Shown here piece by piece: positions 3,542-10,644 of a stretch of DNA of 19,155 bases (its first letter is position 1; every line of letters begins with the position of its first letter). This DNA is from a virus (lineage: Duplodnaviria; Heunggongvirae; Uroviricota; Caudoviricetes). The position numbers and the translations under genes are program-made. The stretch spans positions 64,001 to 83,155 of IMG/VR virus record IMGVR_UViG_3300009856_000010; one strand, 5' to 3'. The notes beneath the pieces were generated by a model. It was given only the letters and a program-made list of their open reading frames with translations, was not told the origin of the DNA and made no database searches.

Positions 3542-4420
3542 TTACCCCCTTGCATAAGTAATCCCATACTGCTGGCAGAGATAAAAGAAAGTACCAATAT
3601 TCACCATCGAGGTATTCTTTAAACACTCAGTAAATTTTTCATCCGTCTCTTCGACCGAGTAAGCCGGATTCATACTGCTACAAAGGTGAAACCAGTACCG
3701 CCCATCTTCGCCCAGACTGGATAATGCACTACCCACCGTAAACCAATCAGCATAACTGCCTGTAATATCTATTCGATGCGCGCGGATCATCTCACAACAA
3801 CGGATTACTTTTTTCAAATCCCAACTGTCATTCTGGTAAGTCGGTTTATAGCTATCCGGCATCTTTTCCACGTGCAAACCTTCATACAGGGTTGCATCTA
3901 CATTTATATAAGGTGTTTCCTCGAATGAGACGCAGCGCAACCGGCAAACGTCTCCGCAGGCTTTGTCAAGGTTGATGCCAATAGCTGAGTAATCTGCCAA
4001 TAGCTGGCGAAAATGCTGTTTATGATATTCCGGATGTGCTAACCGTATTAGGGCGAAATAGCCGGTACCACTAACCGAATGTGCCAGGTAAGCAATCTCC
4101 GGACGGCTTTCGAGAATAGGGCGAACCTGTTCTATATCCGAAAAATGTTTGTTGTCTTTACTGTCAATATCAATACAGATGAATCCCGAATGCTGGGCCA
4201 GATTAATCGCACTTCGTGTAGGTTGAAATACCCCGCTTATGGTAGCCAAAGGGAGCTTTACCTTTTCGGCATCGCGTTCCTTTTTGGTAGGCAAAGAACG
4301 GATATACCCTACCCTATCCTTATGCTTTTGGCTATTCAGGAAGCTGGTAAGCAGGGTTACACTCCCCTCTGTGTCCATGGCGTTGCGGTAAATACTGATA
4401 TATTGATTAAATATCTCCAT
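3542..4420 (-). CDS. BT4734/VirE N-terminal-like domain plus PriCT-2 (primase C-terminal 2) domain protein
   Basis: KxKLPxATISG..HSGFICIDID..SVSGTG..DKACGDVCRLRCVS matches the Bacteroidetes VirE-N/BT4734-like primase-related domain. DITGSYADWFTVGSALSSLGEDGRYWFHLCS..Y..ETDEKF..IGTFFYLC matches PriCT-2. Confidence 0.8.
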   Translation of the reverse strand: MEIFNQYISIYRNAMDTEGSVTLLTSFLNSQKHKDRVGYIRSLPTKKERDAEKVKLPLATISGVFQPTRSAINLAQHSGFICIDIDSKDNKHFSDIEQVRPILESRPEIAYLAHSVSGTGYFALIRLAHPEYHKQHFRQLLADYSAIGINLDKACGDVCRLRCVSFEETPYINVDATLYEGLHVEKMPDSYKPTYQNDSWDLKKVIRCCEMIRAHRIDITGSYADWFTVGSALSSLGEDGRYWFHLCSSMNPAYSVEETDEKFTECLKNTSMVNIGTFFYLCQQYGITYARG

Positions 4421-5799: not shown

Positions 5800-5829
5800 A
5801 AAAAGTTCCGCTTTTTTGGCGGAACCTTT
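5798..5829. terminator. Hairpin between convergent genes, also an iteron copy
   Basis: GTTCCGC (5805-5811) / GCGGAAC (5819-5825) stem with a 7-nt loop. The A7 tract on the left gives a U tract for the minus-strand rep transcript. Confidence 0.6.
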
Positions 5830-5836
5830 ACTTTGA

Positions 5837-7285
5837 TTATTTGGTAATATTATACATCAGCTTCACCCCTACCCCATATACATCATAAAGAACTGTCTTT
5901 ATAGTGTCTAAGTGGTACATTTCAAGGTATTCATAAAAGAACTGACTGGGAACACCAATCGTCACCGTGTTATCTTTATATCCCCGATGAATTAAAGGTT
6001 CAAACCAAACCTTATAGATAGACTCTTCAATCTTTTCTTTAATAGTTCCTAAGAATCGTTCCCACTTTTCATTTTCTTCGGTCGAATACACTTCTATATG
6101 TTCCGCTTTTATGGCACTTTTGGGTTTTGCCTTTTCAGATACATCGGCGGATTGCACAATTTTAATTTGTTCTTCCACTTTGGCCTGTTGTTCGGCATCC
6201 AAATCGTCCAACTTCCGTATGCAGCAAGTATATGCCCATGCGCGAAGGTCTTTTACTTTATCGCCTTGCTGAGAAACTTTTGTGTTCAATTCGGTAAGGA
6301 AAGTATCAAAATCATCAATAACATTCTCGTCCAACCGCTTTATGATGGCATTAATATTCGACGCAGTTTGCGCAAAGTTACTTTTCAGAAACTCCTGCAT
6401 CTTAATCTTCCGGGAAACAAAGCCCTGAATATTGGCCGCCTCTTTGCCGGCTTTCGATTGGATGATGATAAACTTCAAGGCTTCGGGTTCTCCCCGCTTT
6501 TTACCGTTCTTGTATACACGCTCAACCTCAAAATAGCAATCGGTTTCGCCGGTTTCGGCTTTAGTGCAAAGCTCTACCCGGGCATCTTCTATCACATTAG
6601 AGTAAAAAGCGCGCCAACGGGTATAAGCATCTTCCAAACGAAGCATTTTGCGCAATTCGGTAATTTTAATAGGCGGCGTGGCTCCTTGCGATTTCCATGC
6701 CGATATAAAAATATAGAGTCGCTGTACATATTTGTTTCGGGTGGAGAATACAACGTCTTTCAAGTATCGGTGTATCCCCATTGATTTAACATCCAGCAAC
6801 CGTAAAGCAATATCTTTTTTTATCTTGATATTTACAGAATTGGCATATCTTTCTTCAGGTATATACACCTCACAAAGTCCGGTATAGCGTTTGTAATCCC
6901 GCCCGTTCTTGTCTTTAACCGGTACTTCAATGCCAACAGTATGCAGCATACTCAACGATTCTTTGAGTTCCTTATATCGCCGTGGATCCGCTCCAAATTC
7001 TTTTAATGGAATTTTGAGCATAATTTCATTCTTCGAGACCTCTTCTTCTCCAAAATCCTGATTGGTAAAAAGCGGCAGCTGCTCCGGCGAACATACATTG
7101 TTTACCACCTGCATGAGCGAATCTTGCAGTTTCTCTATGATAAGCGAGAAAGTACGCCCCTGCGAGGTATTGAAATCGTATCTGGCGTATGCTACAGCTA
7201 CTGGCTGCGACAACCACGTTTGTTCGTTTATCGGGATGATATCCTTAGATATGGCTTTCTTTAGTATTTTCTTAGTCCTTACCAT
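5837..7285 (-). CDS. Rep_3-family plasmid replication initiator with a C-terminal DnaA N-terminal (domain I)-like module
   Basis: Rep_3-type segments (LSQPVAVAYARYDFN, LFEVYIPE-like beta region, KYVQRLYIFISAWK, ITELRKMLRLEDAYTRWRAFYSNVIEDARVEL). The last ~75 aa (WERFLGTIKEKIEESIYKVWFEPL..TVTIGVPSQFFYEYLEMYHLDTIKTVL) match the DnaA domain I pattern. Adjacent to an iteron cluster. Confidence 0.85.
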   Translation of the reverse strand: MVRTKKILKKAISKDIIPINEQTWLSQPVAVAYARYDFNTSQGRTFSLIIEKLQDSLMQVVNNVCSPEQLPLFTNQDFGEEEVSKNEIMLKIPLKEFGADPRRYKELKESLSMLHTVGIEVPVKDKNGRDYKRYTGLCEVYIPEERYANSVNIKIKKDIALRLLDVKSMGIHRYLKDVVFSTRNKYVQRLYIFISAWKSQGATPPIKITELRKMLRLEDAYTRWRAFYSNVIEDARVELCTKAETGETDCYFEVERVYKNGKKRGEPEALKFIIIQSKAGKEAANIQGFVSRKIKMQEFLKSNFAQTASNINAIIKRLDENVIDDFDTFLTELNTKVSQQGDKVKDLRAWAYTCCIRKLDDLDAEQQAKVEEQIKIVQSADVSEKAKPKSAIKAEHIEVYSTEENEKWERFLGTIKEKIEESIYKVWFEPLIHRGYKDNTVTIGVPSQFFYEYLEMYHLDTIKTVLYDVYGVGVKLMYNITK

Positions 7286-7367
7286 AGACTTGTTTTATTG
7301 CAAAATAATAGTTTCTTTTTCTTAAAAACAACTCACTTTGTATACTTTAATATTTACCCCCCACTTT

Positions 7368-7969
7368 CGCCACCTAATAGGAACTTTTCTAAGATTAATG
7401 ATTATAGGAAGAAGAATTGTTCCGTTTTAATGGCACTTCATTTTGAATATGTTCCGCTTTTGTGGCGCTTTGAAGTATCGATCCTTATAGATCTTCCTGT
7501 TTATTGGCGAAAGTGTTCCTATTATCTGGCGGGAATCTTCCTGTTTACTGGCGAAAGAGTTCCTGTTTACTGGCGGAAATCTTCCTGTTAGGTGGCGGAA
7601 ATACGCTGTAAATGACTGTAAATAAAACATTTACATACTCCTTATATATTATATATTTCTTATAAGCCTTATAATTAAGAATAAAGATCGACCTCTTTCT
7701 TTTCTTCTCACTAATCAATACATACATGTATAAGAGATAAAACGCACCCAAACAGGAACCCTAACTAAGAACATTATATATTTAATATCGATTCGAGTAA
7801 AAAGAGTTCCGATTTTATGGCGCTTTTCATTCAAAATGGCTAAAAATGTTCCGCTTCTTTGGCGTTTCTCCTATATACGCCTTAAAAATGTTCCTGTTTG
7901 TTGGCGGAAATGTTCCGCTTTTGTGGCGCATTGAGTTTTTCTCTCGTAGAGTGTTCCAACAATTTGGCG
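7368..7969. repeat. Iteron cluster, consensus (G/C)TTCC-N7-TGGC(G/A), 13 copies
   Basis: Starts at 7368 (inverted), 7419, 7451, 7493, 7515, 7537, 7559, 7581, 7806, 7848, 7890, 7912, 7953. Five copies at exact 22-bp spacing (7493-7597); most others 41-42 bp apart (in helical phase). Confidence 0.9.
7598..7805. other. AT-rich unwinding element of the replication origin
   Basis: Very AT-rich stretch (e.g. CTTATATATTATATATTTCTTATAAGCCTTATAATTAAG) directly next to the five phased iterons and bracketed by the second iteron group. Confidence 0.7.
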
Positions 7970-7971
7970 GA

Positions 7972-8391
7972 TTAATAACCCTTCTTTTTCAGAAACTGCT
8001 CAATAGCAGTTAGCCCAAGTGACTTCAAACTCTCCCCGTCCATATCCAGTTTCATGTTCGAAAGCCGTTTGTACATCGACTTCGGCATGGCAAGATTCAA
8101 TCCGATTGTTTTCTCCACTTCGGGTTCCGCCACTTTACCGGAACTCTTCCGGGTTGTTTTTTTAGGCTTCTCCTCCCCTACTCTGCTTTCTTCCGGTTCC
8201 TTTGCTGTGTTGGTTTCTACAGCTGGCGAAAGTTCCGCTTTTGTGGCGGTTGGGGTTTCCTCTTCGACAGGTGCTGCGGGTACGGGTTGCACTACGTGTG
8301 ATACAGGCGCAGTTTCTTCCAATGCCTTTGTTATGGTTTCATCCATATAAGTTGTGGAGTTCAATGCTCTTTCTCCAAATTTCTTTGCCAT
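7972..8391 (-). CDS. Ribbon-helix-helix centromere-binding protein (type Ib ParG/ParB-like adaptor)
   Basis: Directly downstream of parA. Long P/A/E/T-rich disordered N-terminus plus a C-terminal strand-helix-helix (KTIGLNLAMPKSMYKRLSNMK..ESLKSLGLTAIEQFLKK). Confidence 0.75.
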   Translation of the reverse strand: MAKKFGERALNSTTYMDETITKALEETAPVSHVVQPVPAAPVEEETPTATKAELSPAVETNTAKEPEESRVGEEKPKKTTRKSSGKVAEPEVEKTIGLNLAMPKSMYKRLSNMKLDMDGESLKSLGLTAIEQFLKKKGY

Positions 8392-8395
8392 GGTA

Positions 8396-9199
8396 TTATG
8401 AATTTAATGGTTCTGGTGATGTTGCTAAAAACTCTTCGACAAAAGCCATGTAGTCTTTGGCTCCGTTGGATGTAGGCGCGTATGAGAGTATATTTCCATC
8501 GTATTCTTGCGACTCAACAATTTTATTATTCCTACGTATACGCGTATTAAATATATCAAAACTCTCATTTAGATCTTTAGAGTATACTTTAGCAGTACTC
8601 AATCGTTCGTCTACCATTACGAGAAGAAAACCACGAATGGTTAACTCTTTGTTAATGGTCTTTTTTACCTCAAGGAACTTAGCGGTTACATTAGCTAATC
8701 CGCGAACGGCAAATGATTCGAGTTGAATAGGTATGAGCAGGCCGGATGCTACACTCATTGCGTTGAGTGTAATAGACCCCATGCTTGGAGGGCAGTCTAT
8801 AATGATGTAATCGAAGTCATGAACGGTGTTCAGCGGTTCATCATAATGCTTATCTATTGGTTCATCGAATACAAAACAAAGTACCTGATTGGGCGACATT
8901 TGTTGACTAAGATAAGGTTCAATTCCGTTTATTTGTTCCGAACTTGGTGTGTAATAAATGCCTGTCTCGGATTTGTAAACTGGTAGTCCTTTTACGTCTT
9001 TCAACGCATCGAATAGCGTGCGACCTTTGTTTTCCAGTTGATGCCACCCGTTGCAAAACGAAGCGTAACGCTGCGAGTCAGCATCAATAATCAATACTTT
9101 AAATCCTTTGATTGTTAAGCCCATGGCAAGGTTTTGGGCTGTGGTGGTTTTGCCTACACCACCTTTATCGTTGGTTACGGCAATGATTTCTTTCAACAT
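8396..9199 (-). CDS. parA: ParA family partition ATPase (type Ib, no N-terminal HTH)
   Basis: Deviant Walker A (NDKGGVGKTTT), VLIIDADSQ, Walker B (DYIIIDCPPS), IPIQLESFAVRGL, TRIRRNNKIVESQ. Confidence 0.95.
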   Translation of the reverse strand: MLKEIIAVTNDKGGVGKTTTAQNLAMGLTIKGFKVLIIDADSQRYASFCNGWHQLENKGRTLFDALKDVKGLPVYKSETGIYYTPSSEQINGIEPYLSQQMSPNQVLCFVFDEPIDKHYDEPLNTVHDFDYIIIDCPPSMGSITLNAMSVASGLLIPIQLESFAVRGLANVTAKFLEVKKTINKELTIRGFLLVMVDERLSTAKVYSKDLNESFDIFNTRIRRNNKIVESQEYDGNILSYAPTSNGAKDYMAFVEEFLATSPEPLNS

Positions 9200-9229
9200 A
9201 CTTTAATGATTTTAGTCCTTTTACGGAGG

Positions 9230-9259
9230 CAAAGATATACAATAGTGTGAAACTACAAA
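9230..9259 (-). promoter_or_regulatory. parA operon promoter
   Basis: TATCTTTG (-7; 9237-9230) and TTTG (-33; 9259-9256) with an 18-bp spacer, 30 bp before the ATG. Confidence 0.7.
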
Positions 9260-9536
9260 AGAATTTTAGTTTAAAAGTATAATTAAACGAATGTGTTTTT
9301 AAACATAAGTATGTTTGTATTTTAGTTTGAATGTATTAAAGTGTATATACACCTTAGTTCAATTATACTTATGTTTATATGTGACTATGTGTAAAAGTAT
9401 GAAAGTGTATTAGTGCAAATAAACTAAAGTGTATAAGGTTAAATGTGTATTTGTATTGAAGTAGTAATGTGCAAACGTTTGAAAGTTGTTTAGTCCAAAT
9501 GTATAAACGTACATAAGTATTAAAATACAGTAGTAT
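9233..9536. repeat. 8-bp-periodic array, candidate type Ib centromere/operator
   Basis: In a fixed 8-bp register, 36 of 38 consecutive units are a 4-bp AT-rich spacer plus a GTnn box (mostly GTAT/GTGT/GTTT) or the inverted nnAC box. Overlaps the parA promoter. Confidence 0.8.
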
Positions 9537-9575
9537 AAAAAAACTCCTATCGGAACGCTATCCGGCAGGAGTTTT
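9537..9575 (-). terminator. Intrinsic terminator
   Basis: AAAACTCCT / AGGAGTTTT stem with inner CGGA/TCCG pairing, followed by U7 on the minus strand. Confidence 0.8.
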
Positions 9576-9622
9576 CTGTTTCCTAATTGAAGCATGTCAA
9601 GTGTAAAAGGACTATGCAGAAA
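9537..9622 (-). ncRNA. Candidate ~85-nt small RNA
   Basis: Lies between a perfect sigma-A promoter (9628-9658) and an intrinsic terminator (9537-9575). The 5' UUUCUG can pair with CAGAAA. The 5' end is estimated, not observed. Confidence 0.55.
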
Positions 9623-9627
9623 CATAG

Positions 9628-9658
9628 CAAAGATAACACTTTTCGGAAGACTACCAAA
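9628..9658 (-). promoter_or_regulatory. Bacteroidetes sigma-A promoter
   Basis: TTTG (9658-9655), 19-bp spacer, TATCTTTG (9635-9628): exact consensus. Confidence 0.8.
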
Positions 9659-9664
9659 ATAGTA

Positions 9665-9782
9665 AAAAAAACGGCACGGTGCGGTACAGAAAAATGCCAC
9701 CGTGAGGTTTAGGAAAATGGCACGGTGCGAGATTTGAAAGCCTCACGGTGAGGTTTTTCGATGTCGCACCGTGCCATTTTTT
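9665..9782. repeat. Five pseudo-palindromic CAC(C/G)GTG sites at exact 23-bp spacing
   Basis: Centres at 9678, 9701, 9724, 9747, 9770. AAAATGGCACGGTGCGA (9714-9730) and TCGCACCGTGCCATTTT (9764-9780) are a perfect 17-bp inverted pair around site 4. Confidence 0.85.
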
Positions 9783-9878
9783 CACCCCGTTTCTGGGCGT
9801 TCTGGCGGGGGTAAAAGTAGGGTGGGGGAGTGGAAAATCTGTGATTTTATAGAAGTTTTATAGAGAAAAACTTACAAA

Positions 9879-10187
9879 TCACCATTCGTCGTCATCTTCT
9901 TCAATTTTCTCCATATCTTCTTCAAGTATTCGCTCTTCAATGGCAAGGAAATTCCATCCTTCAGTGAGAATTTTCTCTTGTTCCTTGGAACTTGGTTTTT
10001 CTCCGTCTATCCATTGTATTTCGGCGATGGTAGATATCCATTGATCGTAAGATACAAAATAACTGTCACCTACATCGTAGAATATCGCTACGCGTGGATA
10101 AGATAATTTTATCAGAACTTCACGGCCTGTATAGTGTTGGCGATTCTCGCCTAACCACCAATGTTTATGTGTTTCAATTGGAATCAT
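9879..10187 (-). CDS. Hypothetical protein with acidic tail (102 aa)
   Basis: Flanked by 26-bp motifs; C-terminus EEDMEKIEEDDDEW. Confidence 0.7.
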   Translation of the reverse strand: MIPIETHKHWWLGENRQHYTGREVLIKLSYPRVAIFYDVGDSYFVSYDQWISTIAEIQWIDGEKPSSKEQEKILTEGWNFLAIEERILEEDMEKIEEDDDEW

Positions 10188-10281
10188 TCAATATAAATAT
10201 ATTAGTTATTGCAAAACAGTGATCTTTGAAATTCGCCATAGGCTGTGATTTTTCAGAATCCCCATAGGGCAGGGTAGGGGG

Positions 10282-10644
10282 TTAGTCCTTATCGGCATAT
10301 CGATTGCGATCTCCTTCGGACATGGTGCTTACCCGGAACTCTGCCATTTCCTGAAGCGTGGTGCGTAGTAGTTCCTCCCAATTATCTATGCGTTGCTCAT
10401 AAATATTTTTGAGTCCGCACATAGGCACTACATACACACGATACCCGTTTGCCTTGGCAAAGTATCTGTCGGACTGGCTGTATTTGGATAGGAATTCACG
10501 GCGATCCTGCTCGCGGCTTGCGTTCGGTCCGAAAATGAATACAACGCCGACTATTTGCGGTCCACGGGTTTGAACGATGAGCTGGGCACCGTTGGCGACA
10601 TCGGGATGATTGGCGAAAATATAATCTGGAGCAATGGCTTTCAT
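10282..10644 (-). CDS. Hypothetical protein (120 aa; start revised from 10746)
   Basis: The ORF-track start overlaps the upstream gene and crosses the repeat. ATG 10644 (MKAIAPDY) has an A-rich Bacteroidetes start context. Confidence 0.7.
   Translation of the reverse strand: MKAIAPDYIFANHPDVANGAQLIVQTRGPQIVGVVFIFGPNASREQDRREFLSKYSQSDRYFAKANGYRVYVVPMCGLKNIYEQRIDNWEELLRTTLQEMAEFRVSTMSEGDRNRYADKD

Follow-up and report, generated by a model that had tools for sequence, protein, structure and literature searches.

What is the function of a short promoter-terminator unit that lies just ahead of the partition genes of a phage-plasmid? The unit is found in a stretch of 19,155 nucleotides (nt), here called the window and used for all positions unless another sequence is named, which makes up the final part of the 83,155-bp IMG/VR virus record IMGVR_UViG_3300009856_000010. 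The host element is a phage-plasmid of gut Bacteroidales, and plasmids related to it have a similar candidate RNA gene. All genes surrounding the locus lie on the minus strand, on which the order is palindrome array, the unit, an array of 8-bp repeats, parA (partition ATPase), parB of a putative ribbon-helix-helix (RHH) type, an iteron origin, and rep. An earlier note on this DNA had read the unit as the gene of a small RNA (sRNA) without a credible open reading frame (ORF), whose 12-nt seed is complementary to two sites in the parA mRNA and partly matches rep; all its coordinates for the promoter, the terminator, the seed, the parA copies, and the rep match were correct. Drawing on sequence features, conservation, and covariation, we consider it likely that the unit encodes a new trans-acting antisense sRNA of about 85 nt which controls parA, probably by repression.

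The seed, UAGUCCUUUUAC, is located near the 5′ end of the candidate sRNA on the minus strand (9614-9603). Its exact complement, GTAAAAGGACTA, occurs exactly three times in the 83,155 bp, and all copies fall inside 630 bp, one on the plus strand (9603-9614) and two on the minus strand (9213-9224 and 8984-8995). The window contains no copy with one mismatch, and a nonoverlapping 12-mer triple within 700 bp arose in none of 60 dinucleotide shuffles of the genome. Likewise, a perfect 12-nt helix between the 5′ part of the sRNA and the parA leader was absent from all 5,000 shuffles. The first target, GUAAAAGGACUA (9224-9213, minus strand), covers positions −25 to −14 relative to the parA AUG and lies 13 nt before the ATG at 9199. 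Since it begins 5 nt past the −7 box of the parA promoter, it is predicted to coincide within 2 nt with the 5′ end of the parA mRNA. The second exact copy (8995-8984, minus strand) lies inside parA and codes for V69-K-G-L72. Only this genome has it, and the earlier view of it as a further target gained no support. It is located where this part of ParA is most variable, and its VKG residues are unique among 37 clade members, which suggests selection at the nucleotide rather than the protein level.

Together with its promoter, the unit spans positions 9658 to 9537 of the minus strand. The sigma-ABfr promoter motif of Bacteroidota consists of TTTG at −33 and TAnnTTTG at −7 (PMC7366714). Both elements are present ahead of the candidate sRNA (promoter at 9658-9628, with TTTG at 9658-9655, a 19-nt spacer, and the −7 box TATCTTTG at 9635-9628) and again ahead of parA on the same strand (9259-9230, with TTTG at 9259-9256, an 18-nt spacer, and TATCTTTG at 9237-9230). 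The pattern TTTG-N17-21-TAnnTTTG has four matches in the window, compared with 0.79 expected, and two of the four are these promoters. The sRNA itself is predicted to start at 9623 (±2 nt) and to end at 9537, and its predicted fold comprises a weak 5′ hairpin, stem-loop 1 (SL1; 9623-9578, minus strand), and a terminator, SL2 (9577-9537, minus strand), which is a bulged, G+C-rich hairpin followed by U7. A simple terminator scan did not pick up SL2 because the hairpin is bulged. When the whole 87-nt unit was folded with RNAfold, the minimum free energy was −29.2 kcal/mol (z = −4.8), a stability reached by none of 200 shuffles. Within SL1, CUUUUAC, the 3′ seven bases of the seed, is predicted to lie unpaired in the loop with a probability of 0.98 to 1.00, and the parA leaders of the window and its relatives are predicted to be unstructured.

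Homologous units were sought through ParA. A ParA search yielded a clade at 48 to 68% identity, found only in metagenome assemblies from Logan, ENA, and NCBI, and twelve ParA-clade proteins with flanking DNA formed the comparison set. Four lineages other than that of the window (L008-011, L012, L181/182, and L206-208), with ParA proteins 59 to 65% identical to the window ParA, carry a homologous unit upstream of an 8-bp array of their own. The layout of the unit is the same in all four, namely a −7 box, a seed 13 to 22 nt later, and a terminator hairpin with a GAUAG-like loop; the boxes of the L181 and L012 units are comparable to a sigma-ABfr promoter. A mechanically called 96-aa ORF (9410-9700) overlaps the sRNA unit, but no ORF is kept across the homologous units of the relatives, and the 5′ parts of the five units have no common reading frame. 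Readings of the unit as a type I toxin-antitoxin locus or a small-peptide gene were dropped for want of a conserved ORF. An Rfam cmscan with E values up to 1 gave no match at 9537-9623 or at the L008, L012, L181, and L206 units.

In each lineage, the seed is the perfect complement of the bases that start 4 to 5 nt past the −7 box of its own parA. The helix measures 12 nt in the window (UAGUCCUUUUAC), 11 nt in L008 (seed CGUUCUUUAAC), 11 nt in L012 (UGUUCUUUAAC; 15 nt when a 4-bp extension with two G·U pairs is included), 10 nt in L181 (AAUUCUUAAC), where it resumes past a 1-nt bulge, and 15 nt in L206 (UUUGGUUCUUUAACA). Wherever one partner differs between lineages (at two core positions, one indel, and throughout the flanks), the other has changed to match, and no helix contains an internal mismatch; helix position 11, for instance, reads U:A, C:G, and G:C across the lineages and U:A again in the window. 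Among 5,000 shuffles for each lineage, an equally long helix appeared in none for the window, L008, and L206, in 42 for L012, and in 21 for L181. Seed and target always stand in the strand relation that pairing requires. Thus, the check suggested in the earlier note, covariation of seed and target in relatives, came out strongly in favor of pairing with the parA leader, as did the recurrence of the promoter-terminator unit in five lineages. A covariance model built from three units (R1) recovered only its own members and missed L181, and the model was therefore too weak for discovery.

The structure of the RNA points the same way. The stems of the terminators contain 12 to 15 pairs followed by U5 to U8, and 10 of their 19 pairs have changed on both sides with pairing kept. 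The folds of the whole units are more stable than those of shuffled sequences across the lineages (z = −3.9 to −6.0), and in the seeds of all five lineages the 3′ 7 to 10 nt are predicted to be unpaired with a probability of at least 0.8. SL1 shows compensatory closing pairs (GUUUCU/GGAAAC, UCCCU/GGGGA, GGUU/AACC, and CUGUGGCA/UGCCACAG), which were read off individual folds rather than alignment counts, as MAFFT gave no structural alignment of L181 and L206.

The main alternative to an antisense RNA, already raised in the earlier note, is that the 12-mers constitute DNA operators, bound by the RHH-like ParB, by another protein of the element, or by a host factor, and that the transcript of about 85 nt is incidental. 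Both main copies lie just past −7 boxes, in a position from which a protein might obstruct RNA polymerase, three lineages have the core GTTAAAGAAC, and the 3′ part of the window seed (CTTTTACAC) resembles the centromere unit (families D3 and D6), although no such resemblance is seen in L181 or L206. Moreover, the two parA copies have a common 13th base (CGTAAAAGGACTA) that is not paired with the sRNA and is not needed for pairing. On the other hand, the site is asymmetric and nonpalindromic, and each promoter has a single copy. It lies 13 to 22 nt from the sRNA −7 box, measures 10 to 15 nt, and is interrupted by a bulge in L181. The variation in helix length and register among the lineages is more readily explained by RNA helices than by a protein site, whose length would be fixed. 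Furthermore, the only genes shared among the sRNA-bearing loci are those of ParA and ParB, both of which also occur in the sRNA-less loci, so that no DNA-binding gene travels with the sites, and operators would assign no role to a promoter-terminator unit that is conserved and whose stem shows compensatory changes. We therefore disfavor the operator reading and regard it as unlikely.

A different arrangement in a sixth lineage, represented by the contigs L177 and L178, bears on this alternative and on two others. Here, a small unit that cannot be aligned with the sRNA unit is located immediately downstream of parB on the same strand (L177:3985-4107; L178:1550-1672), with a consensus promoter (TTTG-N20-TATTTTTG), a hairpin (CUGCAAA/UUUGCAG), and a strong terminator. 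The loop region of its hairpin, AUUCGAUAAAG, is the exact complement of positions −21 to −11 of the parA leader of the same element; a helix of this length was matched in 4 of 5,000 shuffles, and the unit is present in both contigs although their downstream genes differ. It may represent a feedback RNA derived from the 3′ end of the par operon. The recurrence of leader complementarity at another gene position, in a nonhomologous unit, is hard to reconcile with operators, with a leader reached by read-through, or with repeats that flank the centromere, and it adds to the case for a pairing sRNA.

The second of these readings supposes cis pairing, in which transcription runs past the terminator and the centromere into parA and the 5′ seed locks the leader of the same molecule in the manner of a long-range attenuator or a riboswitch. 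The unit does lie upstream of parA and co-oriented with it in five lineages. However, its terminators are strong, with the stems and U tracts given above, parA has its own consensus promoter between the partners with the target right after the −7 box, the spacing of the partners varies from about 270 to 545 nt, and the L177/L178 unit is downstream of the operon. We consider such a mechanism improbable.

We attach still less weight to the third reading, according to which the inverted copies are recombination or inversion sites flanking the centromere, or a functionless chance repeat; it appears very remote. In five lineages inverted repeats of 10 to 15 bp do bracket the centromere array, as such sites might, but no recombinase gene is common to the loci, the orientation is the same in 9 of 9 independent contigs of three lineages (L008-011, L181/182, and L206-208), and the L177/L178 copies do not bracket the centromere. 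A chance repeat is excluded by the shuffles.

Several observations weigh against an antisense sRNA and temper our confidence in it. The sample comprises only five homologous lineages and one analogous lineage. Transcription of parA possibly starts 2 nt inside the first target, which would cut the helix to 10 nt, and the duplex energies are only moderate outliers with respect to shuffled leaders (z = −1.9 to −5.6). SL1 alone is no more stable than shuffled sequences in four of the five lineages (z = −0.1 to −1.4), so the placement of the seed in a loop depends on weak folds and a few compensatory pairs. The L206 sRNA promoter does not conform to the consensus, the core GUUAAAGAAC common to three lineages could equally be explained by a shared binding factor, and co-evolving sites of a DNA-binding protein would covary in the same way as seed and target. 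Finally, several members of the ParA clade manage without any such RNA, which indicates that it is dispensable: in L015, L176, L179, L210, L213, and L215, neither unit nor target motif was present in the DNA fetched. The joint absence of unit and motif, for its part, speaks for a pairing sRNA.

Beyond parA, no further target could be put forward. The earlier note had tentatively extended the control to rep, based on the partial match AAGGACTA (RNA AAGGACUA; 7280-7273, minus strand), which takes in rep codons 3 and 4 together with the last base of codon 2 and the first of codon 5. It pairs with UAGUCCUU, mainly the stem side of the seed, over 8 nt plus 2 nt across a bulge. Partial 8-mers of this kind number about 16 in the genome, others being located at window positions 829 and 10290, and rep of L008 and of L181 has no equivalent site. 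We find the rep site doubtful and unsupported as an sRNA target and did not count it as one. RNAduplex scans for more targets were dominated by long, loop-rich artifacts, their antisense-strand controls scored equally, and we judged them uninformative.

Two further complementarities in the relatives were rejected. In L206, CAUAUCGAUAU within the sRNA (L206:1457-1583) is complementary to GUAUCGAUAUG (L206:1995-2005), which spans the parA AUG; it was not accepted because of its palindromic ATCGAT core and because its nonnested topology is wrong for a continuous helix. In L008, an 11-nt inverted pair, AGCTTGGAGTA (L008:2863-2873 and 3755-3765, at −638 and +254), lies outside the sRNA and within chance expectation. 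One copy precedes the sRNA −7 box by 47 nt and the other is inside parA, and the pair is kept in four near-identical contigs.

How could such an sRNA act? Bacteroides mRNAs lack a Shine-Dalgarno (SD) sequence and depend on A-rich leaders, translation efficiency in Bacteroidetes depends on adenines at −3, −6, and −11 to −15, and the long single-stranded seeds of Bacteroides trans sRNAs act on translation initiation regions (PMC7366714). On this basis, and from the observations above, we infer transcription of the sRNA, its pairing in vivo, and the sign of its effect. The sRNA would be made from its own sigma-ABfr promoter and end at the intrinsic terminator, and its 12-nt seed, with the 3′ seven bases exposed, would pair in trans with the first 10 to 12 nt of the parA mRNA (−25 to −14). 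In the present genome, the seed may also pair with the second site at parA codons 69 to 72 and thereby help repression. The duplex would then lower ParA synthesis by blocking ribosome loading on the short, A-rich, SD-less leader, by mRNA decay, or by both. We favor repression because the leader is only about 25 nt long and pairing would occupy its positions −25 to −14 (−21 to −11 in L177), and because SD-less translation depends on adenines. As a constitutive product encoded next to the centromere, the sRNA would be present at a dose that scales with plasmid copy number and could limit ParA in addition to the autoregulation that proteins exert at the centromere. Too much ParA is known to interfere with partition.

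The sRNA might also pair as described and yet activate parA, if the duplex shields the 5′ end of the mRNA from 5′-end-dependent decay; in Streptococcus, FasX protects the ska mRNA in this manner. We judge this rather unlikely, although the target does lie at the extreme 5′ end of the mRNA in five lineages and leaves −13 to +1 free. Activation would leave the second site of the window, in the parA coding region, without an obvious role, and the duplex in L177/L178 (−21 to −11) overlaps the A-rich translation zone at −11 to −15.

The cassette around the sRNA has in common with type Ib partition loci a Walker ParA without an N-terminal helix-turn-helix (HTH) and an array of short direct repeats ahead of parA. 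The array, which is AT-rich and centromere-like, consists of about 35 units (9263-9536) and separates the sRNA terminator from the parA promoter. It shows strict 8-bp phasing, seen over 9263-9545, in which the copy spacings of 24, 32, 40, 48, and 80 are all multiples of 8; in the relatives, analogous 8-bp-phased arrays occupy the same position upstream of parA. The parA gene (9199-8396, minus strand) encodes a 267-aa Walker-type partition ATPase (AAA_31, E value of 5e-39; PHROG 164, ParA-like, E value of 1e-48), in which the AAA_31 and CbiA domains span residues 4 to 233 and no N-terminal HTH DNA-binding domain is present. It is followed by a gene for a ParB-like, centromere-binding protein of 139 aa (8391-7972, minus strand), in which a disordered linker joins a conserved peptide at the N terminus (MAKKFG..LN) to a putatively RHH-like domain at the C terminus. 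This protein has no Pfam match, and a profile of 13 homologues gave only weak matches, to the RHH proteins 2k9i and 3ft7 (E value of 0.007) and to 9kkd (E value of 0.22).

An iteron origin (7950-7400) lies between parB and rep and contains about 11 copies of the approximately 22-bp repeat CGCCAnnAAAnnGGAAC. The iterons form two clusters around an AT-rich core, and further single copies occur inside rep (at about 6098) and parB (at about 8232). A listed 67-aa ORF (7427-7630) was rejected as a regulator gene; it runs over the iterons and is therefore probably not a gene. The rep gene itself (7285-5837, minus strand) encodes a Rep_3 initiator with a DnaA_N-like tail.

The sequence on the other side of the sRNA unit is occupied by an operator-like palindrome array (9782-9665) that adjoins the sRNA promoter and ends about 7 nt before its −33 box. 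Arrays of the same kind, with two to six CAC(C/G)GTG palindromes at an exact pitch of 23 bp, are found in five intergenic regions of the phage genome (window 9665-9782; genome 12172-12264, 24644-24765, 38500-38598, and 62674-62772) and are absent from the plasmid relatives. Since each can fold as a long hairpin with T runs on either strand, the arrays might serve as operators, as bidirectional terminators, or in both roles. The tie to a lysis/plasmid decision that the earlier note had suggested as possible has the array beside the sRNA promoter as its basis and is unsupported. A protein of about 100 aa that belongs to no known family is encoded immediately upstream of the sRNA unit in three of the five sRNA-bearing lineages and in no others (window 9879-10187, minus strand; L206:991-1308; L181:305-604). 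Its conserved motifs are W, PR, NW(L/I)D, and WNF, and its acidic tail, with DDEW or EDEPF at the end, recalls SSB-like tips; a scan with this protein gave no match. Farther upstream, a 14-nt repeat, CCTATGGAGATTCT (minus strand), recurs at three gene junctions of the window (10707, 12222, and 13643).

The elements that carry related partition genes are of more than one type. In L176, L179, and L180, DUF4134 genes (of the Tra type of Bacteroides conjugation) and a gene for a second, VirC1-like ParA adjoin parA on its upstream side, from which it follows that the partition module is common to conjugative plasmid-like elements and to the phage-plasmid of the window. Wider searches gave only distant relatives. 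A nucleotide search with positions 5800 to 10300 found nothing in PLSDB and INPHARED, and the best tblastn matches of the window ParA were at 41% identity, in Bacteroides and Segatella plasmids. Scans of IMG/VR with the window ParA, P0006, P0004, and the clade alignment returned only ParA proteins of at most 42% identity, at loci without a seed-target pair, while GTDB contigs gave ParA of at most 39% identity and 802 Bacteroidales genomes contained no close ParA. Pattern scans for the sRNA and leader in IMG/VR and the metagenome collection gave random matches, with no par locus among the matches listed.

With respect to known systems, the earlier note had pointed to the C4 RNA of P1 and the CI RNA of P4. 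Together with P7 C4 and N15 CB, these constitute the Rfam C4 family of short, structured antisense RNAs, which are encoded by extrachromosomal prophages upstream of and co-oriented with the target operon. The likeness extends to the mode of action, via short complementary boxes in the target mRNA, of which the window has two. It ends there, since the sRNA matches no Rfam model, has one seed rather than two, and has its own promoter and terminator and is probably not processed from an operon leader; in addition, its target is a partition ATPase and not an antirepressor or immunity operon, and most of its relatives are found in plasmid-like rather than phage contexts. ColE1 RNAI, R1 CopA, and the ctRNA of repABC (between repB and repC) are constitutive plasmid antisense RNAs and possible copy-number sensors. 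Like them, the sRNA is plasmid borne, would recognize its partner by exposed loop bases, and would control a maintenance gene. In contrast, those RNAs are encoded on the strand opposite the target, are fully complementary to it, and control replication, whereas the sRNA lies on the same strand, 378 nt upstream, is complementary over 10 to 15 nt, and targets partition.

The type Ib cassettes TP228 ParF/ParG and pSM19035 delta/omega, with their RHH centromere-binding proteins, have been described as regulated by protein autorepression only. They resemble the present cassette in the small Walker ParA, the small protein with a putative C-terminal RHH domain, and the short-repeat array upstream of parA that doubles as an operator, and they differ from it in the RNA layer predicted here. 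Among RNAs of the host group, GibS is a chromosomal trans sRNA of Bacteroides with metabolic targets (PMC7366714). Common to both are a sigma-ABfr promoter, an intrinsic terminator, low G+C content, an extended single-stranded 5′ seed, and SD-less mRNA 5′ ends as targets; unlike GibS, the sRNA is encoded on mobile elements and appears to be dedicated to one neighboring gene, as its target has no other copy in 83 kb. Among the features of Bacteroidota trans sRNAs, those found here are an own sigma-ABfr promoter, an intrinsic terminator, no conserved ORF, and a predicted accessible seed with kept complementarity. The sRNA hence appears to fit this general class and to represent a new sRNA family with a new class of antisense target, and a literature search found no description of sRNA control of a plasmid or prophage parA.

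Regulation of plasmid and prophage partition operons is, in the textbook view, autoregulation by ParA or the centromere-binding protein. A parA-dedicated antisense RNA would add a posttranscriptional layer able to sense copy number, and the sequence data suggest that plasmid segregation in these elements is tuned by antisense RNA and not by proteins alone. Possibly, though this is speculative, riboregulation is a recurrent, modular layer of partition in Bacteroidales mobile elements, for which unrelated sRNAs, encoded either ahead of the centromere or behind parB, were enlisted to pair with the parA leader. The drifting seed-target pairs might then serve as lineage identity codes that set the ParA dose per copy and add incompatibility, and a phage regulator could switch partition off when the element leaves the plasmid state, given that an operator-like array of a kind found across the phage genome adjoins the sRNA promoter and that a second target lies inside parA. 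To our knowledge, few sRNA mechanisms are known in Bacteroides, which belongs to a phylum without Hfq or SD sequences, and the locus would provide a new, compact sRNA-target pair for this group, with the covarying seeds and targets constituting a natural series of compensatory mutants. As elements of this type are common in human gut metagenomes, such control would bear on the persistence of large plasmids and phage-plasmids there.

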